Part shown: piece after piece, positions 6,110 through 32,889 of the stretch
Layout of the letters: every line of letters begins with the position of its first letter
Numbering within the stretch: position 1 is the first letter of the stretch
NCBI GenBank assembly: GCA_000432995.1
Contig: HF972654.1
Location: forward strand, 28,839 to 70,836
DNA: 41,998 nt
Reading direction: 5' to 3'
Source: Clostridium sp. CAG:1013
Lineage (GTDB): Bacteria; Bacillota; Clostridia; Oscillospirales; Acutalibacteraceae
Made by a program: the position numbers and the translations under genes
The notes under the pieces: generated by a model
Database searches by the model: none
Seen by the model: only the letters and a program-made list of their open reading frames with translations
Told to the model about the DNA's origin: nothing

Positions 6110-7252
6110 ATGACATTCTATCTGAAGGTAGTGTGGCAGGCGGTAATGGTGTTTCCGTTTGCTGCGGCTGTGATCGCGCTGCCTTTTCTCATTCATCATT
6201 ACAGGAAATACGGTAGCATGACCTTCGCTCGTTTTTTCCTAGCTTATTCTTTTGTGCTCTATGGACTTTGCGCCTACTTTCTGGTGATCCTGCCCCTGCC
6301 CAGCAGGGAAGCGGTAGCTCAAATGACAGGCCCCAGCACCCAGCTGATCCCTTTCAGCTTTTTTCGGGATCTGCATAAAGAGACTGGATTCCTGTTAGAT
6401 GATCCGTCCACCTATCTGCCCGCTCTGCTCAGCACCTTTACACTGCAATTCCTGTTCAATATAGCGTTGCTGGTTCCTTTGGGGTTTTATTTGCGGTATT
6501 ATTTCCGCAGGAAGATGCTGTCCGCTGTGCTTATCTCTCTTGGAGTCAGTCTGTTCTTTGAGTTCACCCAGCTTTCGGGGCTGTATGGCTTCTATCCCAG
6601 AGCCTACCGACTGTTTGATGTGGACGACCTCCTGTGCAATACTCTGGGAGGCTTCTTAGGATATGTGCTTACTGGACCGCTGATGAAAATCCTTCCGGAT
6701 CGGGATAAGATCGACGAACGCTCCTACCAAAAAGGGGAGCGGGTTACATTTACCCGACGGGGACTCTCTTATCTGGTGGACCTGTTTTTCTGGTCGATCC
6801 TTTACGTTGTGACTTCCAGATTCGTCTCTTGGCAGGCTCTTGCGTTTGGCCTTTCCTACCTGCTTTATTTCGGCTTGTTTCAATGGGCATGCGGTGGGAA
6901 AAGTTTGGGAAAACGCCTTACAAAGATTTGCGTAGTCAATCAGAACGGCACACGGGTGCTCCTCTGGCGTTGTCTGCTACGCTATGGGTTGCTGGTGGTA
7001 TTTCTTGAGGCATATTGGGCTGTGGCCTGGCTGTTTTCTCTCACCTCGTCCCTGGCGTTTGGTTCAGAGTTTTTGTCCCTTTTTCTGGTGAGTCTTTGGT
7101 TTCTTGCCGGTGTCTTCGTTCTGCTTTTGGAAACGGTGATGAACCGATCTTCCCAGACGGGAAGAGATTACCTGTACGGCAGGCTTTCCGGTACTCGCCT
7201 TGCCAGTACCGTGCTGCGCCAACCGGAACCGATTCCTCCTGCTCAACCGTAA
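6110..7252 (+). CDS. VanZ family membrane protein with C-terminal RDD domain
   Basis: NIALLVPLG, SLFFEFTQL and RLFDVDDLLCNTLGG (VanZ); RRGLSYLVD and GKSLGKR (RDD). Confidence 0.9.
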   Translation: MTFYLKVVWQAVMVFPFAAAVIALPFLIHHYRKYGSMTFARFFLAYSFVLYGLCAYFLVILPLPSREAVAQMTGPSTQLIPFSFFRDLHKETGFLLDDPSTYLPALLSTFTLQFLFNIALLVPLGFYLRYYFRRKMLSAVLISLGVSLFFEFTQLSGLYGFYPRAYRLFDVDDLLCNTLGGFLGYVLTGPLMKILPDRDKIDERSYQKGERVTFTRRGLSYLVDLFFWSILYVVTSRFVSWQALAFGLSYLLYFGLFQWACGGKSLGKRLTKICVVNQNGTRVLLWRCLLRYGLLVVFLEAYWAVAWLFSLTSSLAFGSEFLSLFLVSLWFLAGVFVLLLETVMNRSSQTGRDYLYGRLSGTRLASTVLRQPEPIPPAQP

Positions 7253-7271: not shown

Positions 7272-7541
7272 ATGGAACGCCAACTGGAGCTTCAGAAATT
7301 CCACTATTTTGATGAAGGCAATACCTATGCCGGTCAAAAAACCAAGGATCCTGATCGGGGTGCGCTGCTTCGTTATTTGGTGACTCCCGATAAAGAGGCT
7401 GCTCTGATTCGGGCTTACTGCTGGACAGAGGACCTTTGCTTTGACCGAGCCCAGAACAAACAGGAAAAAGAGTACCCCCTTACTGAAGAAGGACTGGACA
7501 AGGCCGTGGAATGGCTGGAGGGGGAATATCAGGCACTGTGA
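7272..7541 (+). CDS. Small conserved hypothetical protein
   Basis: 89 aa, AAGGA RBS, same strand and tight spacing in the operon. Confidence 0.75.
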   Translation: MERQLELQKFHYFDEGNTYAGQKTKDPDRGALLRYLVTPDKEAALIRAYCWTEDLCFDRAQNKQEKEYPLTEEGLDKAVEWLEGEYQAL

Positions 7542-7560
7542 TGAAAGCCGCAAAAGGCAG

Positions 7561-7589
7561 TTGACAAAAGTTGGTTCATTAGGTATCAT
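7561..7589 (+). promoter_or_regulatory. sigma-A promoter of the ABC operon
   Basis: TTGACA-17 nt-TATCAT. Confidence 0.85.
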
Positions 7590-7595
7590 AGTAAA

Positions 7596-7745
7596 GCGTT
7601 TTAGCACATATCCGGCAGGAAGCCGGACCAGGCGCCCAAGGTGCCGGCTGTTATGCATAAGATCTATGAATTCAACTTAGCTTAGCCAAAAGATACCAGG
7701 AAGGTGTCTGCTTTTCGTGAGGAAAAGCGGACGCCTTCTTTTTTT
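7596..7745 (+). ncRNA. Candidate cis-regulatory leader RNA (riboswitch/attenuator) of unknown class
   Basis: Hairpins 7611-7627, 7631-7645, 7646-7687 and 7691-7709; the last overlaps a strong terminator at 7700-7745 upstream of the first gene. Confidence 0.65.
7700..7745 (+). terminator. Attenuator terminator in the 5' leader
   Basis: GAAGGTGTCTGCTTTTC-GTGAG-GAAAAGCGGACGCCTTC followed by T7, ~20 nt before the start codon. Confidence 0.85.
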
Positions 7746-7765
7746 GCGAAAGGAGCAATGAAAGG

Positions 7766-9415
7766 ATGAAATGGAAAAAGGGTTTCGCGTTGCTGCTTGT
7801 GGGAGCGCTCCTGATGGGAGTGTTTTCCGGCTGCGGTCAAAGTCAAGAGGGTAGTCCGGGGGAAAGTCTCGTATCCGTTGGGGAAGAGAGCTCCACAGTA
7901 TCCCAGGAGGAAAAGACCTCCGTGGTCATCGCCATGGGCCCCACCTCTGAACCAGAAGCCGGTTTTGACCCTGCCTACGGTTGGGGCGCAGGGGAACACG
8001 TCCACGAGCCGCTGATCCAGAGCACGCTGACTGTCACCAACACGGACCTGACCATCGGTTATGACTTAGCAACTGAGTATTCCGTCAGTGAGGACGGTCT
8101 CACTTGGACAGTGACCATCCGGGATGACGCTTTCTTTACCGATGGTGAACCTCTCACAGCGTCGGATGTGGCCTTCACTTATAACACAGTGAAAGCATCC
8201 AGCTCGGTCAACGATTTCACCATGCTAGATTACGCTGAGGCCACCAATGACACAACGGTGATATTCCATATGACCAGGGCTTTTTCCATTTGGCCTTATA
8301 CCATGGCCATTGTGGGGATTGTCCCGGAGCATGCCTACGACAGCGCCACGTATGGTTCCAACCCCATCGGCTCGGGACGTTACATTTTGAAGCAGTGGGA
8401 CCGAGGCCAGCAGGTGATCCTGGAGGCCAACCCCGACTACTACGGGGAAGCGCCAAAAATGGAGCGGGTAACCATTCTTTTCATGGAGGAGGATGCCGCT
8501 TTCCTAGCCGCTCAAGCCGGCCAAGTGGATGTGGCTTACACTTCCGCCACTTATTCCAATGAGTCGGTAGCCGGCTATACCCTGGAAGCCTATGACAGCG
8601 TGGATAACCGAGGGATCAACCTTCCCACGGTGGCAGCTGGGGAGACCAACGAAAACGGTGTGGCGATCGGCAACGATTTCACCAGCGACGTGCTGGTGCG
8701 CCGGGCCATCAACATGGGCGTGGACCGTCAGGAAATGATCGACAATGTGCTCAACGGCTACGGTTCCCCGGCGTACAGCGTTTGTGACCAGATGCCCTGG
8801 TACAATCCGGCTTCTGAGGTGGAGTACGATCCGGAAGGGGCTGCGGCTCTGCTGGATGAGGCTGGCTGGCTCATGGGAGAGGACGGTGTCCGTGAAAAGA
8901 ATGGTGTGAAAGCGGAACTGACTCTCCTCTATTCCAACGGGGATTCTGTCCGTCAGGCACTCACCGCTGACCTGGTGAACCAGCTGGGAGAGCTGGGCAT
9001 TTCCTGCACCATGGAGGGAGTTGGATGGGATACCGCCTATGACCGTGCCCTTTCCACGCCACTTATGTGGGGCTGGGGAGCCCACACGCCCATGGAGCTG
9101 TACAACATTTACCACACTATGGAGGATACAGGACTGGCCCAGTACTCTCCCTACGCCAACGAGACAGTGGATCAGCTCATGGACGAAGCCCTGGCCTGCG
9201 GCGATTTGGAGGAGTCTTACCAGCTCTGGCAGCAGGCTCAGTGGAATGGTTCCACTGGCGTTACCCAGGAGGGGGACATTCCCTGGGTGTGGCTGGTGAA
9301 CATCGACCATCTGTACTGGGTCAGGGAAGGTCTTCAGGTGGCCCAGCAGAAGATCCATCCCCACGGTCACGGCTGGTCCTTGGTCAATAATGTGGACCAG
9401 TGGTCCTGGTCTTGA
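7766..9415 (+). CDS. ABC transporter substrate-binding lipoprotein (NikA/DppA/OppA family 5)
   Basis: Lipobox FSGC; family-5 motif LATEYSVSEDGLTWTVTIRDDAFFTDGEPLTASDV; His-rich GEHVHEP and HPHGHGW. Confidence 0.93.
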   Translation: MKWKKGFALLLVGALLMGVFSGCGQSQEGSPGESLVSVGEESSTVSQEEKTSVVIAMGPTSEPEAGFDPAYGWGAGEHVHEPLIQSTLTVTNTDLTIGYDLATEYSVSEDGLTWTVTIRDDAFFTDGEPLTASDVAFTYNTVKASSSVNDFTMLDYAEATNDTTVIFHMTRAFSIWPYTMAIVGIVPEHAYDSATYGSNPIGSGRYILKQWDRGQQVILEANPDYYGEAPKMERVTILFMEEDAAFLAAQAGQVDVAYTSATYSNESVAGYTLEAYDSVDNRGINLPTVAAGETNENGVAIGNDFTSDVLVRRAINMGVDRQEMIDNVLNGYGSPAYSVCDQMPWYNPASEVEYDPEGAAALLDEAGWLMGEDGVREKNGVKAELTLLYSNGDSVRQALTADLVNQLGELGISCTMEGVGWDTAYDRALSTPLMWGWGAHTPMELYNIYHTMEDTGLAQYSPYANETVDQLMDEALACGDLEESYQLWQQAQWNGSTGVTQEGDIPWVWLVNIDHLYWVREGLQVAQQKIHPHGHGWSLVNNVDQWSWS

Positions 9416-9431
9416 AGGAAAGGGTGACACC

Positions 9432-10424
9432 ATGACACGATCCCTGCTATTCGCGGGAAAAAAATTATTGCGTGCGTTGCTGCTCCTAGTGGGTGTGAGC
9501 TTGGCCGCATTTTTGCTGCTGTGTGCCTCTCCGCTAGATCCCCTGCAAACTAACGTGGGTCAGGTAGCGCTGGGTTCCATGAGCCAGGAACAAGTGGCCC
9601 AGCTGGAGGCCTACTGGGGGGTGGATCAGCCTCCTGTAGAGCGGTACCTGGGTTGGCTTGGCGGCGTGGTCCACGGAGATTTTGGAACTTCTCTGCTTTA
9701 CCGTCAGCCGGTGCTCACGGTAATCGGCCAGCGGCTGGCAAGCTCTCTGTGGCTTCTCCTCGCGGCCTGGGTGATCTCCGGCGTTCTTGGTCTGGTCCTT
9801 GGGGTGACTGCAGGAACTTTTCGGGGACGCTGGCCGGATAAACTGATCCGTGGCTACTGTCTGGTGATCTCCAGTACGCCGGCATTTTGGCTGGCTTTGC
9901 TGTTTCTGCTGATCTTTTCCGTGTGGCTGGGATGGCTGCCCATCGGCCTGTCCGTACCTATCGGAGTGGAGGAAGAAGCTGTGACTTTGGCCGACCGGCT
10001 TCAGCATGCTGTGCTTCCGGCTCTTACCCTGAGCGTCACCGGTGTCTCCAATATAGCCCTTCACACTCGAGAGAAACTGGTGGACGTACTTGGCAGTGAC
10101 TATATCCTGATGGCTCGGGCAAGAGGGGAAAGCAGTCGTTCCATCATCCTGCGCCATGGTCTGCGGAATGTAGCTCTGCCTGCCTTGACTCTCCAATTTG
10201 GATCTATCAGCGAGATCATCGGCGGTTCTGTGCTGGTGGAGCAGGTATTCTCCTATCCCGGACTGGGACAGGCTGCGGTGACTGCGGGACTGGGAAGCGA
10301 TCTTCCTCTGCTGCTGGGTATCACTGTGATCACCTCCGCCTTGGTGTTTGGAGGCAATCTTCTGGCGGATCTGTTGTACGGAGTGATCGATCCCAGAATG
10401 AAGAAGGGGGAGAGAAGGTCATGA
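9432..10424 (+). CDS. ABC transporter permease (NikB/DppB-like)
   Basis: DYILMARARGES and LVEQVFSYPGLG motifs; start at ATG 9432. Confidence 0.92.
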   Translation: MTRSLLFAGKKLLRALLLLVGVSLAAFLLLCASPLDPLQTNVGQVALGSMSQEQVAQLEAYWGVDQPPVERYLGWLGGVVHGDFGTSLLYRQPVLTVIGQRLASSLWLLLAAWVISGVLGLVLGVTAGTFRGRWPDKLIRGYCLVISSTPAFWLALLFLLIFSVWLGWLPIGLSVPIGVEEEAVTLADRLQHAVLPALTLSVTGVSNIALHTREKLVDVLGSDYILMARARGESSRSIILRHGLRNVALPALTLQFGSISEIIGGSVLVEQVFSYPGLGQAAVTAGLGSDLPLLLGITVITSALVFGGNLLADLLYGVIDPRMKKGERRS

Positions 10425-11245
10425 AGCATGTGAACCGAAGGCTGGCTACTCTGCTTTTTCTGGGGGTTGCCGTAGCTATTTTGACTGGGGTCACTGTCTC
10501 CGGGATCCTTCTCAATGAAACCGCTATGACCACGGATTTTTCCCGTAAAGATCTGGCACCAAGTCTTTCTTTTCTCTTCGGTACTGACTGGATGGGTCGG
10601 GACATGTTTGCCCGCACCCTGGCTGGTCTTTCCCTGAGTATTCGTGTGGGACTTCTGACTGCGGGGATCAGCGCTGGTGTGGCTTTGGTGCTGGGAGTAC
10701 TTTCCGCTGTTTTTGGCGGATGGGTGGACGCTGTCATCTCTTGGTGGATCGACCTGGTCATGGGGATCCCCCACATTCTGCTGGTGATCCTTTTGTCTAT
10801 CGCCTGCGGCAGAGGATTTACCGGTGTGGTGGTAGGCGTGGCTCTCAGTCATTGGACCTCCTTAGCCCGGGTGATTCGGGGAGAGGTGCTCCAACTGAAA
10901 AACGCTCCCTATCTTCTGGTGGCGGAAAAGCTGGGAGTTTCTCGGTGGAAGCGTGTTCGACTCCACTTGTTGCCCCACCTGCTTCCCCAATTTCTTACCG
11001 GACTGATCCTGCTGTTTCCCCACGCCATCCTCCACGAGGCCAGCGTCACCTTTTTGGGGTTTGGGCTTTCCTCGGAGCAGCCTGCCATCGGGGTCATCCT
11101 GTCAGAGAGCATGCGCTATCTCACCACAGGAAAATGGTGGCTGGCATTGTTCCCTGGAGTATCCTTGGTACTGGTGGTCGTGCTGTTCGCCCTGCTTGGA
11201 GAAAGAGTCAGGCTGTTGTTAGATCCCGGAAGTGTCCATGAATAA
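10421..11245 (+). CDS. ABC transporter permease (NikC/DppC-like)
   Basis: FGTDWMGRDMFAR and HEASVTFLGFG motifs; ATGA overlap. Confidence 0.92.
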   Translation: MKHVNRRLATLLFLGVAVAILTGVTVSGILLNETAMTTDFSRKDLAPSLSFLFGTDWMGRDMFARTLAGLSLSIRVGLLTAGISAGVALVLGVLSAVFGGWVDAVISWWIDLVMGIPHILLVILLSIACGRGFTGVVVGVALSHWTSLARVIRGEVLQLKNAPYLLVAEKLGVSRWKRVRLHLLPHLLPQFLTGLILLFPHAILHEASVTFLGFGLSSEQPAIGVILSESMRYLTTGKWWLALFPGVSLVLVVVLFALLGERVRLLLDPGSVHE

Positions 11246-11255
11246 GGAGGTTTCC

Positions 11256-12191
11256 ATGGAACCGATTCTTCAAATCGATCATCTTTCCATTTCTTTTACC
11301 CAATACGGAAAAGGATTCCATCAAAGGGAACTTCCTGTCATCAGAGATCTGTCGTTGTCTTTGAATCCAGGCGAGGTGACCGCCATACTGGGTGCTAGTG
11401 GTTCGGGGAAAAGCCTGCTGGCCCATGCTATTTTAGGACTGCTTCCCTATAACAGCCACCAGGAAGGCACCATTCTCTATGAAGGTCAACCCTTAACTCT
11501 TCCTCGCATTCAAAAACTCCGTGGCAAGGAAATTGTACTGGTGCCCCAGGGAGTCACCTATTTGGATCCGCTGATGAAGGTGGGACACCAGCTCCAAAAA
11601 GGCCGCCGGGATAAGACTGCAAAGGAAAAGACTAAAAATGCTTTATCTAGGTATGGCTTAAGAGAAGATACAGCAGACCTGTACCCCTTTCAACTGTCGG
11701 GAGGCATGGCAAGGCGAGTGCTGATGGCTTCCGCTGTGATGGATACACCCCGGCTTATTATTGCGGACGAGCCTACGCCCGGTCTGGACGCACGATCCGC
11801 CGCCAGGATCTTAGGTCATTTCCGGGAGCTTGCAGCTGACGGAGCGGCTGTGCTGTTCATCACTCATGATTTGGAATTGGCCCTTGCTGTTGCCAACCGA
11901 GTGGCGGTATTTTACGCCGGCGAGACGGTGGAAGTAGCCCAGGTATCTGATTTTCAGGAGAACAGGCTGCGTCATCCCTTTACCAAAGCCCTGTGGGACG
12001 CTCTTCCTCAACGGGGGCTCCATTCCCTTCCAGGTGCCCAGCCTTACCCTGGAGAGGTGGAGGAGGGTTGTCCCTTCTTTGGGCAGTGTCCCCATCCTCG
12101 AGATGAGTGCGCCCAAGGGAAGATCCCCCTGCGTTCTCTGAGTAATGGAATGGTTCGCTGCCTGTATCCTAGTGGGGAGGTGGAAGCATGA
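11256..12191 (+). CDS. ABC transporter ATP-binding protein (NikD/DppD-like)
   Basis: GASGSGKS, LSGGM and ADEPT; C-terminal GCPF..C Cys motif; AAGGAGG RBS before ATG 11256. Confidence 0.92.
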   Translation: MEPILQIDHLSISFTQYGKGFHQRELPVIRDLSLSLNPGEVTAILGASGSGKSLLAHAILGLLPYNSHQEGTILYEGQPLTLPRIQKLRGKEIVLVPQGVTYLDPLMKVGHQLQKGRRDKTAKEKTKNALSRYGLREDTADLYPFQLSGGMARRVLMASAVMDTPRLIIADEPTPGLDARSAARILGHFRELAADGAAVLFITHDLELALAVANRVAVFYAGETVEVAQVSDFQENRLRHPFTKALWDALPQRGLHSLPGAQPYPGEVEEGCPFFGQCPHPRDECAQGKIPLRSLSNGMVRCLYPSGEVEA

Positions 12192-12796
12192 TTCTGGAAG
12201 GAAAAAACCTCACTTTTAGTTACGGAGGGAAAAAAGCCGCACCGGTGCTGGATCAGGTGGATATTTCCATTGGATCTGGCGAGCGTGTGGGTCTGAAAGG
12301 GCACAGTGGCAGAGGCAAGACCACCTTGTGTCGTCTGTTGGCGGGGTATGAAAAACCACGAAATGGGGAAGTCCTGTTGGACGGAAAGCCACTGTCCTCT
12401 TTTTCTGGTCCTTGTCCTGTGCAAATGGTGTGGCAGCATCCGGAAATGGTGGTGGATCCGTTGCTGCCGTTAGGAGTGTCTCTAGGAGAAGCTACTCCGC
12501 CAGATCCAAACTTAATTTCCGCCCTTCACATCCGGGAGGGATGGCTCACCCGGTATCCATCGGAGCTTTCCGGAGGAGAGCTTCAAAGATTTTGTCTAGC
12601 AAGGGCGCTGCACCCGTCGGTAAAGTTCCTGTTGTGCGATGAAATCACTGCCATGCTGGACTTAGTCACTCAAGCGCAGATCTGGGAATTCCTGCTGCAC
12701 GAGGCAAAACGGAGAGACTTAGGCCTTTTAGTGGTGTCCCACAATGATGCCCTGTTAGAGCGGGTCTGTACCAGGATCGTCACATTAGAAAACTGA
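12188..12796 (+). CDS. ABC transporter ATP-binding protein (short NikE-like)
   Basis: GHSGRGKT, LSGGE, CDEIT and VSH motifs. Confidence 0.9.
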   Translation: MILEGKNLTFSYGGKKAAPVLDQVDISIGSGERVGLKGHSGRGKTTLCRLLAGYEKPRNGEVLLDGKPLSSFSGPCPVQMVWQHPEMVVDPLLPLGVSLGEATPPDPNLISALHIREGWLTRYPSELSGGELQRFCLARALHPSVKFLLCDEITAMLDLVTQAQIWEFLLHEAKRRDLGLLVVSHNDALLERVCTRIVTLEN

Positions 12797-13182: not shown

Positions 13183-13956
13183 ATGGCAAGAGAGCGATAC
13201 CTGGTAAACGCAGGAGAGGACACCATTCATCAAAACGAGATCAAACTGGTCACCGGTAAAGACAAGCGGAAGAACTGGTGGTATTATCATAAAGTGCATT
13301 TACTGGTTGCGGTGCTGGTGATTGCATTGGTAAGCAGCTTTGTTTATTCGATAGCAACTAATGTGGATCCGGATTATACGATTGCATTGCTGACATCCTA
13401 TTCCATGCCTGAGACTGGTATGGATCAGCTGGAGGCGCATATCACGAAATATGCGGATGACCGCAACGGGGACGGACAAGTGAACGTTCGGGTGGTAAAC
13501 TACGTCTACTCAAACGATGATGATGTAGACTATTCTCAGAAGGAAGCTGCCATCGTGCGTTTTATGGCGGATGCCAGCAGCAATGAGGTCATGATTTACC
13601 TCCACGATGAAAAAGCGTTTAGTGCTCTGGAAAGCACATTTGAAGGATTTTTCCAGTACACAGACGGCACTTCTATGCCGGAAGACGCAACCGATTTTGA
13701 AAATGCTATGACCCCTTGGGAGGACATTGCGGCTTTTGCAAACTTTGAGCCTGTGTCGGAAGAAGGGGAGCTGTACACAGCGGATATTCTCTCGGAACTT
13801 TACGGCCGACTTCGTGTTTCCTGCCGGGCGGCTGAGGGCAGTTCCATTGAGAAGAAAGAGGAGGATATGGAATATTATGAGTCCTCCATGGCGCTGTTTG
13901 AGCGTCTTAAGAACGACGAACCCTTGCAAGAGGAGACTGTTTCAGAAGAGGGATAA
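13183..13956 (+). CDS. Hypothetical membrane-anchored protein
   Basis: KNWWYYHK followed by one TM helix and an acidic extracellular domain (DRNGDG motif); AAGGAG RBS; upstream TTGAAA-17-TAGAAT promoter. Confidence 0.8.
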   Translation: MARERYLVNAGEDTIHQNEIKLVTGKDKRKNWWYYHKVHLLVAVLVIALVSSFVYSIATNVDPDYTIALLTSYSMPETGMDQLEAHITKYADDRNGDGQVNVRVVNYVYSNDDDVDYSQKEAAIVRFMADASSNEVMIYLHDEKAFSALESTFEGFFQYTDGTSMPEDATDFENAMTPWEDIAAFANFEPVSEEGELYTADILSELYGRLRVSCRAAEGSSIEKKEEDMEYYESSMALFERLKNDEPLQEETVSEEG

Positions 13957-13959
13957 ATC

Positions 13960-15540
13960 ATGGGCCCAGTAACCATCTTCGATTCCACCCTGCGGGACGG
14001 CGCACAGGGAACAGGTGTTGCGTTTTCTCTGGAGGATAAACTCCAGGCGGTGCGTCTGCTGGATCAAATTGGTATCCAATACGTAGAGGCAGGCAATCCC
14101 GGTTCCAATCCCAAAGACGCGGAGTTTTTCCAGCGGGCAGAGAAACTGTCCTTAAAAAACACCCAGCTGGTATCTTTTGGCAGCACTCGCCGAAAGGATC
14201 TCCGGCCGGAAGAGGACAGCAATCTGGCAGCTATATTAGCCGCAGGAACGCTGTGGTGCAGCGTTTTTGGAAAGTGTTGGAAATTCCATGTGGAGCGGGT
14301 GTTGGAGACCTCCTACGAGGAGAATTTCCGCATGATCGAGGAAAGCTGCCGTTTTCTCAAAGAGCACGGCAGGAAGGTGGTTTTTGACGCGGAGCATTTC
14401 TTTGACGGCTGGAAGGACGACAAAGCCTTCGCGTGGGAAGCTCTGCGAGCGGCTGTGCGGGGCGGAGCAGATGTGGTCTGCCTGTGTGATACCAACGGCG
14501 GCGCGTTTCCCAAAGAAGTAGAGCGGATTGTCAAAGAAGTGGTGGGAAAACTGGGTGTCCCCGTGGCTGTGCATTTTCACGAGGATTGCGGTATGGCCAC
14601 CGCTAACAGCGTGACCGCCGTGCTGGCAGGAGCTTCCCAGGTGCAGGGCACTCTGCTGGGATTTGGCGAACGATGCGGCAATGCCAATTTGGCATCTATC
14701 ATCCCTGATCTACAAGTGAAGCTGGGGATCCCCTGTATCCCGCAGGAGGAGCTTCTGCATCTGACCCAGCGGGCACGGGAGCTGGCGTCCATCGCCAATA
14801 TGGATTTGCCCGCGTGGATGCCCTATGTGGGGGAGAACGCCTTCGCCCACAAAGCTGGAATGCATGCCGCAGCTGTGTTGAAGTCGCCCCGCTCTTTCGA
14901 GCATGTGGATCCCTATCTGGTGGGGAATGCTCGGCGCTTTCCTGCGTCGGAGATGTCCGGAAGAGCCGTGGTGCTGGAAAAGGTGAAAAACATTTTTCCC
15001 TCCGCGCGGCTGGATTCCCAGGAGACAAAAGCGCTGCTTCACGAGCTGAAAGAATTGGAGTCTCGGGGATATCAATTTGAAGGGGCGGATGCCTCCTTCC
15101 AGCTATTGGTGCGCAAGCGTTTGAAGCCCTTCCCGCCCTTTTTTGAGATGCTGTATTATCACATCTATACCGATTACAGCGATGGCGCCGACCGAGGGGC
15201 CAGTGCCACGGTGAAAGTCCGGGTAGGGGGAGAGATCCAGCTGATGGCGGCGGAAGGAAACGGCCCTGTGAACGCTCTGGACCAGGCCCTTCGCAAAGCC
15301 TTGGAAATCTTTTATCCTGTGCTGTCTCAGGTCAAACTGACCGACTATAAAGTTCGTGTGCTGGACAGTAAAAGCGCTACCGCAGCGGGAGTACGTGTAT
15401 TGATCACCTCCACTGACGGGACAGATACTTTCACCACCGTAGGAGTTTCCGGAGACGTGGTGGCGGCCAGCTGGAAAGCCTTGGAAGATTCCATGGAGTA
15501 TTTGCTGCTGAAGGACGCTTACCGGAAGGAAAAAGAGTAA
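13960..15540 (+). CDS. cimA: Citramalate synthase (LeuA/CimA family)
   Basis: DSTLRDGAQ, FDAEHFFDG, LCDTNGG, GERCGNA and HKAGMH; C-terminal regulatory domain (GNGPVNALD, DYKVRV). Confidence 0.9.
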   Translation: MGPVTIFDSTLRDGAQGTGVAFSLEDKLQAVRLLDQIGIQYVEAGNPGSNPKDAEFFQRAEKLSLKNTQLVSFGSTRRKDLRPEEDSNLAAILAAGTLWCSVFGKCWKFHVERVLETSYEENFRMIEESCRFLKEHGRKVVFDAEHFFDGWKDDKAFAWEALRAAVRGGADVVCLCDTNGGAFPKEVERIVKEVVGKLGVPVAVHFHEDCGMATANSVTAVLAGASQVQGTLLGFGERCGNANLASIIPDLQVKLGIPCIPQEELLHLTQRARELASIANMDLPAWMPYVGENAFAHKAGMHAAAVLKSPRSFEHVDPYLVGNARRFPASEMSGRAVVLEKVKNIFPSARLDSQETKALLHELKELESRGYQFEGADASFQLLVRKRLKPFPPFFEMLYYHIYTDYSDGADRGASATVKVRVGGEIQLMAAEGNGPVNALDQALRKALEIFYPVLSQVKLTDYKVRVLDSKSATAAGVRVLITSTDGTDTFTTVGVSGDVVAASWKALEDSMEYLLLKDAYRKEKE

Positions 15541-32657: not shown

Positions 32658-32747
32658 TGGCGGAGAAGGAGGGATTTGAACCCTCGCGCCGGTTTCCCGA
32701 CCTACTCCCTTAGCAGGGGAGCCCCTTCACCACTTGGGTACTTCTCC
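32658..32747 (-). tRNA. tRNA-Ser (GCT)
   Basis: GGAGAAG...CTCCC-CT-GCT-AA-GGGAG, long variable arm, GTTCAAATC, 3' CTTCTCCGCCA. Confidence 0.97.
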
Positions 32748-32800: not shown

Positions 32801-32889
32801 TGGCGGAGAGGAAGAGATTCGAACTCTTGGTCCCTTGCGGGATCACTAGTTTTCAAGACTAGCTCCTTAAACCACTCGGACACCTCTCC
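32801..32889 (-). tRNA. tRNA-Ser (TGA)
   Basis: GGAGAGG...CTAGT-CT-TGA-AA-ACTAG, long variable arm, GTTCGAATC, 3' CCTCTCCGCCA; upstream TTGACT-17-TATCAT promoter. Confidence 0.97.

Follow-up and report, generated by a model that had tools for sequence, protein, structure and literature searches.

Introduction

What does the leader of a nickel-type ABC importer operon respond to, when two of its hairpins carry the same loop and the second overlaps an intrinsic terminator? The question is raised by a locus in Clostridium sp. CAG:1013, within a stretch of 41,998 nucleotides (contig HF972654.1, positions 28,839 to 70,836; hereafter the window). A first-pass annotation of this stretch had proposed a new riboswitch or attenuator, turned on by a ligand or a protein and controlling a nickel or peptide transporter. 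Here we report that the leader recurs with covarying stems in related genomes, where it precedes genes for the synthesis of the cofactor nickel-pincer nucleotide (NPN), nickel importers and ECF S-components. We put at roughly 0.55 the probability that the leader belongs to a new riboswitch-type attenuator class governing the NPN regulon of Clostridia, that is, genes which make or metallate the cofactor and, probably, also genes which salvage it.

Results

Anatomy of the leader and its operon

The leader and the operon behind it comprise the following features.

7561..7589, + strand: predicted sigma-70-type promoter (-35 TTGACA at 7561-7566, -10 TATCAT at 7584-7589)
7611..7627, + strand: P1 hairpin, TCCGGC-AGGAA-GCCGGA, 6 bp, a C-G pair closing the loop AGGAA
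7631..7645, + strand: P2 hairpin, GGCGCC-CAA-GGTGCC, with loop CAA where most relatives have NGAA
7646..7687, + strand: variable linker (P3 of the first-pass annotation), a helix in the centroid fold only
7691..7709, + strand: P4 antiterminator hairpin, AGATACC-AGGAA-GGTGTCT, 7 bp, a C-G pair closing the loop AGGAA
7698..7747, + strand: intrinsic terminator, a 19-bp stem (7698-7740) followed by a U tract
7750..7755, + strand: Shine-Dalgarno sequence AAGGAG, as read from the sequence, 10 nt upstream of the ATG at 7766
7766..9415, + strand: SBP_bac_5 substrate-binding lipoprotein, nik-like
9390-10424 and 10421-11245, + strand: permeases of the nik-like importer
11232-12191 and 12188-12796, + strand: ATPases of the nik-like importer

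The promoter is indeed close to consensus, matching it at 11 of 12 positions with a spacer of 17, and transcription is predicted to start near 7596. P1, P2 and P4 agree base for base with the hairpins that had been proposed, and the strong terminator said to overlap P4 is present as a 19-bp stem with a T run after it. For its 5′ arm this terminator uses the P4 loop and the 3′ strand of P4, nucleotides 7698-7709 being common to both helices. The long P3 that had been drawn at 7646-7687 did not hold up: it appears in the centroid fold only, and its length and sequence vary among relatives, which places it outside the conserved motif. None of 200 shuffled versions folds as well as the whole 171-nt leader (z = -4.76). 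Folded alone, P4 of the window has an energy of -8.8 kcal/mol and the terminator one of -30.3 kcal/mol; the median energies are -6.4 kcal/mol for P4, -6.95 kcal/mol for the upper hairpin and -27.6 kcal/mol for the full terminator. Because the terminator is far stronger than P4, we infer that termination is the default and that P4 needs help to compete. The heptamer CAGGAAG, made of the loop and its closing pair, is common in the window (23 copies against 8.85 expected) and is not diagnostic, and its count was dropped as evidence. What stands above chance is the hairpin context of the loops together with their conservation and covariation in relatives, not the heptamer itself.

The operon consists of five genes of the nik/opp type, encoding the lipoprotein, two permeases and two ATPases (the last four at 9390..12796). 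Relatives of the substrate-binding protein were found in 274 stretches of public genomes, and among the best 80 of these 274 a same-strand LarC-like gene ends directly before the binding-protein gene in 66; of the remaining loci among the best 80, 12 have the motif leader in its place and two have no upstream DNA. The placement of larC directly upstream in 66 of 80 loci argues that the ABC system of the window is a nickel importer accompanying NPN synthesis, and it bears out the nickel side of the original assignment. On our best reading, the switch in the window thus controls a Lar-associated nickel ABC importer. Other neighbours are a VanZ-RDD fusion protein (6110-7252) and, just before the promoter, an 89-aa open reading frame without a family (7272-7541); past the ABC operon come a 257-aa open reading frame, likewise without a family, and citramalate synthase (13183-13956 and 13960-15540, respectively).

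Spread of the motif

A DNA-level search for the leader in relatives gave matches in just 7 of 61 genomes, and covariance models (R1, R2 and R3) were built and used for scanning instead. The scans of more than 40 genomes applied strict filters with about 19 candidates scored per genome, so that the counts are floors, and the scanned genomes are related, so that the counts are not independent; read in this way, the motif occurs in at least 27 of the 58 genus genomes, in at least 14 of 151 genomes of the family sample (13 of 150 genera), in at least 32 of 151 of the order sample (23 of 96 genera and 15 of 30 families) and in at least 27 of 151 of the class sample (23 of 108 genera). There are one or two copies per genome, and one carrier, Massiliimalia timonensis (locus L065), is a cultured organism. 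Similar promoters are found in relatives 15-25 nt upstream of P1. The order-level copies have promoters of their own, and a same-strand gene lies 0-72 nt downstream in 27 of 28. An orphan copy in genome G023 (contig C44, L118:1501-1643, - strand) has no obvious gene downstream and is followed by a second, perfect hairpin with T runs.

Conservation and covariation

The check on orthologous leaders that the first-pass annotation had proposed came out in favour of structure, with P1, P2, P4 and the terminator all covarying. Fourteen distinct nik-type leaders (alignment A1) align well at these four elements. In the version of the structure composed of P1, P2, P4 and the upper hairpin, 89.4% of cells are paired and double changes occur in 12 of 25 pairs; the covariation score of 0.342 compares with 0.198 ± 0.017 for shuffled alignments, none of 500 of which reach it, and with a maximum of 0.176 when the structure is slid. 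In the terminator version of the structure for the same 14 leaders, 91.6% of cells are paired, and the terminator taken by itself has 95.8% of cells paired and double changes at 6 pairs. One pair distinguishes the two helices. In A1 the P4 pair 159-169 is A-U in nine sequences and G-C in five, while the terminator pair 169-198 is U-G in nine and C-G in five, the partner of column 169 staying G. Since the P4 pair covaries while the terminator partner does not change, P4 is selected in its own right, which upholds the view that it is a real helix excluding the terminator.

A wider set of 51 diverse copies aligned to R2 (alignment A4) has 92.2% of cells paired, double changes in 22 of 25 pairs and a covariation score of 0.70 (0.225 ± 0.013 when shuffled; slid controls at most 0.163), figures to be read with the proviso that A4, like A5, was fitted to a covariance model and its pair counts lean towards the model structure. 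Five of the six P1 pairs in A4 have double changes.

The matching loops of P1 and P4 proved to be the most conserved feature among relatives. The observation that the two loops match stands, but GGA is not invariant among relatives and the consensus is A(N)GAA. Loop and closing pair of P1 read CAGGAAG in 30 of the 51 copies; variant readings are CATGAAG, CAAGAAG and CAGAAG, and only the closing C-G pairs and the loop GAA are near-invariant, giving consensus loops of C-A(N)GAA-G for P1, C-NGAA-G for P2 and C-A(N)GAA-G for P4. The N positions of P1 and P4 show no correlation across copies, which argues against a Watson-Crick pair between the loops at this base. Spacing is uneven. P1 and P2 are 3-4 nt apart, the linker between P2 and P4 runs from 14 to 88 nt and cannot be aligned among relatives, and the starts of the P1 and P4 patterns in nik-type copies are 63-132 nt apart (79-132 nt but for two copies at 63). 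P2 is absent from many class-level copies, as judged by eye. Inspection by eye of several leaders also indicated a possible closing helix, P0, around P1 and P2, which could not be aligned and is not counted in the motif, and the P1-P4 linker of one copy (L207, genome G317) contains three tandem repeats of about 22 nt that include the inverted repeat GACAAT..ATTGTC.

Genes behind the motif

The genome of the window holds a second copy (G000, contig C94, L161:3046-3192, - strand), scoring 40.5 bits with R2 and 90.3 bits with R3, that lies directly before larE-larB-larC. Its P1, CTTCC-AGGAA-GGAAG, is a full compensatory change relative to P1 of the window. LarE was found in 39 of 58 genomes of the genus; 17 of the 30 LarE loci fetched have a match directly upstream, and four more carry the motif by eye. 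A single copy in G134 precedes larE-larB-larC together with a nik-like ABC system (nikABCDE). Copies in the genus also precede nik-like substrate-binding proteins, ECF S-components, FecCD permeases with Peripla_BP_2 and FmdE and, by eye, CbiM-PDGLE with CbiQ/O-like genes.

At greater distance the first gene behind the motif is most often a transporter component. The 28 order-level copies are followed by ECF_trnsprt (16), LarE-like genes (5), LarC (Ni_insertion; 3) and SBP_bac_5, FecCD, an ABC ATPase and an unclear gene (1 each); the five LarE-like proteins share 57-64% identity, and two of them pass Pfam QueC at 1e-5. Among 26 class-level copies the corresponding genes are ECF_trnsprt (17), CbiM (3), FecCD (1), FmdE (1) and genes of no family (4). 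The most frequent regulated gene is therefore an uncharacterised ECF S-component, often followed by a uridine-kinase-like protein. In 10 of 21 cases the next gene after the ECF S-component encodes the same conserved protein, about 355 aa long, and this module of PF12822 and partner is found at L128:744-2395, L152:7521-9147, L198, L199, L203, L205, L210-L212 and L217. The partner belongs to a large, unnamed family (4040 matches at E up to 1e-20). Its predicted model (pLDDT 91.9) resembles uridine-cytidine kinases in the C-terminal half (best 3asy_B, E 6.8e-11), and its N-terminal domain is conserved with an invariant Q..G..H. For the ECF S-component itself, comparison with solved structures and the protein atlas gave generic ECF S-component matches only; one homologue of 65% identity is named 'niacin transporter' by JGI. 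One weak copy has a NadN-like 5′-nucleotidase gene downstream.

Several further contexts were noted. In G204 the motif-led ECF S-component is fused to a DUF1893 (TM1506) domain (L158:625-1596). A small membrane protein of 135-144 aa that begins MAC(F/L)L(V/I)PAAEA and has no Pfam match is encoded immediately behind the motif by four genomes (L141:1696-2100, L147:1000-1431, L229:1006-1428 and L230:1068-1478); in G117 it is followed by an ECF S-component, a methyltransferase and a CobW/HypB-like GTPase. In G241 the motif copy has a canonical FMN riboswitch (100 bits; L200:2906-3033, - strand) at a distance of about 1.3 kb.

Association with the NPN cofactor

Across the 151 genomes of the order sample, the motif was found in 32, LarC in 42, LarB in 34 and Lar_N (LarA family) in 50. 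Of the 84 genomes that encode LarC or a LarA-family protein, 29 carry the motif, as opposed to 3 of 67 with neither (odds ratio 11.2, Fisher p 4.7e-6, uncorrected for kinship), the three exceptions being G055 (77% complete), G239 and G335. No protein is a universal partner of the motif, LarC being present in 13 of the 32 motif-bearing genomes and LarA-family and ANTAR proteins in 21 each.

Genomes with and without LarC use the motif differently. In the 13 that have LarC, the copies whose downstream gene could be read (G302 is left out) sit on lar or nickel-transport genes, except in G080, where the copy sits on an ECF S-component gene although LarC is present. The other 19 all lack LarB as well as LarC; 16 of them have a LarA-family protein (6 strong matches and 10 weak ones at E 1e-12 to 1e-15), and in 16 the motif is on an ECF S-component gene. 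LarC without LarB was seen in nine genomes of the order, G080, G042, G241, G286 and G298 among them; five of the nine are motif-bearing, and in three of these five, G042, G241 and G286, the motif lies directly before larC. G080 (1.4 Mb, 100% complete) also lacks LarE and LarA, and the vicinity of its larC contains no motif at E up to 1. Behind the motif-led larC of G042 comes a gene for a membrane protein of 393 aa, which may be transporter-like. In the order sample at large, 42 of 50 genomes with a LarA-family protein have no LarC, and only 8 of 42 LarC genomes have a LarA-family protein; makers and LarA-type users of the cofactor are therefore largely different genomes. This distribution is consistent with a regulon that covers synthesis of the cofactor, supply of nickel and salvage of the cofactor or a precursor.

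Comparison with known RNA families

Scanning the whole window against Rfam 15 at the gathering score returned two tRNA genes only (32661-32747 and 32804-32889, - strand). At E up to 10, the region 7500-7800 gave terminator-like noise, the best being ctRNA_p42d at 21.1 bits against a threshold of 50, and at E up to 0.01 none of 34 related loci has a match at the motif. The covariance search suggested by the first-pass annotation thus finds no family for the leader, NiCo, cobalamin, NAD+-I/II, guanidine-II and T-box included. Cobalamin riboswitches do exist in this genome, as three canonical copies located elsewhere.

Of the parallels that had been drawn, the echo of NiCo was not borne out, as no Rfam NiCo match appears even at E up to 10. 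NiCo riboswitches (the czcD motif) share with the leader an involvement in nickel/cobalt biology in Firmicutes. They are built on a four-way junction and control exporters, whereas the genes led by the new motif are importers and cofactor genes. The CsrA parallel fails on the loops, in which the GGA is not invariant among relatives: P1 loops include AUGAA, AAGAA, ACGAA and AGAA, P2 loops are mostly NGAA and P4 loops vary likewise, which rules the motif out as a set of CsrA/RsmA sites.

The likeness to ANTAR targets is closer in layout. As far as the excerpted text describes the EutV, NasR and AmiR targets (PMC8934654), these also have two hairpins with similar loops, the second overlapping a terminator, and binding leads to antitermination. 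The parallel nevertheless breaks down on loop size, spacing and protein co-occurrence. In the same excerpt (PMC8934654), ANTAR targets have six-nucleotide loops whose first base is A and whose fourth is G, set at a short and constant distance from each other, and 20 nt added to the linker abolishes the action of EutV; the loops here are A(N)GAA, 4-5 nt long and closed by C-G, with a P2-P4 linker of 14-88 nt and P1-P4 starts 63-132 nt apart. The ANTAR domain (PF03861) occurs in 21 of 32 motif-bearing and 68 of 119 motif-free genomes of the order, and 9 of the 11 motif genomes that lack it are at least 93% complete.

The nearest design is that of guanidine-II (mini-ykkC), with its separate small hairpins, identical C-G-closed loops and variable linker. 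In guanidine-II the ligand is thought to bring the loops together. The new motif is not a member of this class, its loops being A(N)GAA and not ACGR and no Rfam match being obtained, and it differs further in that the loops lack self-complementarity, a third hairpin often occurs, control is by a terminator and not at the Shine-Dalgarno sequence, and the regulon is another one. In terms of regulon, the counterparts are the cobalamin and Moco riboswitches, whose targets combine synthesis, metal uptake and salvage; here too a single RNA class precedes synthesis genes, a metal importer and a salvage transporter. Those classes are OFF switches with large junction aptamers, unlike the new motif, which bears them no likeness in sequence or structure and has a minimal hairpin core and an ON-type anatomy. 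More generally, the leader has the marks of an attenuator (a conserved, covarying terminator and an alternative helix, P4, that excludes it) and the genomic context of a riboswitch (a conserved structured leader before a coherent set of non-homologous genes in distant taxa). In the parts of the literature covered by our search, no paper connects a riboswitch to Lar, NPN or niaX motifs, although supplementary lists of discovery papers may hold the motif under another name; one excerpted paper reports new NPN-dependent enzyme families and mentions neither a transporter nor a riboswitch there (PMC13524815).

Discussion

We propose that the leader operates as follows. Unaided, the terminator would form and end transcription before the operon is reached. 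If an effector took hold of the matching loops, P4 would be locked, so that the 3′ arm of the terminator could not invade and RNA polymerase would read into the genes. That P4 is the effector-bound form, with binding leading to read-through, is suggested by its loop, which is conserved like that of P1 and for which the terminator has no need. As effector we consider a small molecule from the pincer pathway, bound directly by the RNA, the most likely, because the motif precedes larE-larB-larC, larC, nickel importers and ECF S-components with a riboside-kinase-like partner, and the ECF S-component and kinase-like pair looks like a salvage route. Candidates would be NPN or one of its precursors without nickel, for instance pyridinium-3,5-bisthiocarboxylate mononucleotide or the corresponding riboside. 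The breadth of this regulon, with lar and ECF S-component genes in addition to the transporter originally considered, changes the likely effector from the one first envisaged. In cofactor regulons the end product usually represses. Anatomy and energies point to an ON switch where feedback logic would prefer OFF, and since read-through on effector binding conflicts with end-product repression, the effector may be a precursor or deficiency signal, or the mechanism an unorthodox one. A precursor or riboside acting as inducer, a cofactor-free protein or competition between the loops would each reconcile the two.

A protein in the place of the small molecule is unlikely in our judgement but has to be taken seriously. 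In such protein-dependent antitermination an RNA-binding protein, possibly a cofactor-free NPN binder, would grip the C-A(N)GAA-G hairpins and hold P4, giving read-through under cofactor scarcity and so squaring the ON anatomy with the feedback expected for a cofactor regulon. Small hairpins that recur in identical form at varying distances, the middle one being dispensable, look like protein sites, and the tiny core of the motif (loops, closing pairs and variable spacing), which counts against the riboswitch reading, is equally typical of them; a second hairpin overlapping the terminator is moreover the logic of ANTAR, LicT and HutP as given in the excerpt of PMC8934654. On the other hand, the motif contexts examined show no linked candidate gene, no tested family is present in all motif genomes (ANTAR 21/32, LarC 13/32, LarA family 21/32), and one or two copies per genome is a pattern common among riboswitches. 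It is improbable that the ligand is a metal ion, with Ni2+ or Co2+ bridging the purine-rich loops via N7 and altering the stability of P4. Many of the regulated genes are nickel/cobalt importers (nik-like, CbiM-PDGLE, and FecCD with Peripla_BP_2 and FmdE), the loops are rich in G and A, and NiCo riboswitches bind their metal through guanine N7. Yet if metal induced the read-through of an importer, a toxic metal would be driving its own uptake in positive feedback; the most frequent unit (ECF S-component and uridine-kinase-like protein) has no evident tie to free metal, and the NiCo model shows no similarity.

The 'niacin transporter' label on the 65%-identical homologue of the ECF S-component speaks against the NPN reading in that it would fit a ligand from the NAD pathway, such as nicotinate riboside, NaMN, NaAD or similar. 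The ECF S-component and kinase would then be a pyridine-riboside salvage system to which lar genes are attached because LarB consumes NaAD, and the ribonucleoside-kinase fold of the partner, the weak copy before a NadN-like 5′-nucleotidase and the fusion of DUF1893 to one ECF S-component can be cited in its favour. A sensor of this kind would leave unexplained why nickel importers and larC are under the same switch with the same polarity; the motif tracks LarC and the LarA family (29/84 versus 3/67), whereas NAD metabolism is universal, and the Rfam NAD+ classes are without a match, so that we hold out little prospect for it. That the element is not a regulated switch at all, but a terminator preceded by a hairpin (as a constitutive attenuator, an upstream transcript end or an RNA-stability element), its loops being alike by descent, is very improbable. 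The terminator is far stronger than P4 and the copy at L118 lacks an obvious downstream gene, as this would predict; but the leader has its own promoter, 27 of the 28 copies from the order have a gene on the same strand 0-72 nt downstream, conservation with covariation extends over no fewer than 15 families of the order, and further, in front of functionally linked, non-homologous genes, and P4 is conserved by covariation though the terminator does without it.

The riboswitch-type attenuator of the NPN regulon therefore remains the reading we favour. To our knowledge, the only regulator described for lar genes is the protein LarR of Lactiplantibacillus, and no RNA regulator of nickel uptake or NPN synthesis is described in Rfam 15 or in the portions of the literature searched. 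A hairpin-only switch spread across Clostridia would extend the known ligand classes by one and introduce a small-aptamer architecture of a new kind. Predictions follow from its regulon for what a widespread, uncharacterised ECF S-component transports, the role of a kinase family of more than 4000 members and the source of the cofactor in LarA-like genomes without Lar biosynthesis genes (42 of 50 in the order sample), and cultured carriers such as Massiliimalia timonensis make experiments feasible. More tentatively, and at rather less than even odds, this may be the first riboswitch class for NPN or its nickel-free precursor, together with a salvage route, consisting of the ECF S-component and a uridine-kinase-like riboside kinase, that lets many gut Clostridia with LarA-family enzymes, but lacking LarB and LarC, take the cofactor from their neighbours. 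If so, NPN would be a shared 'vitamin' of the gut community.
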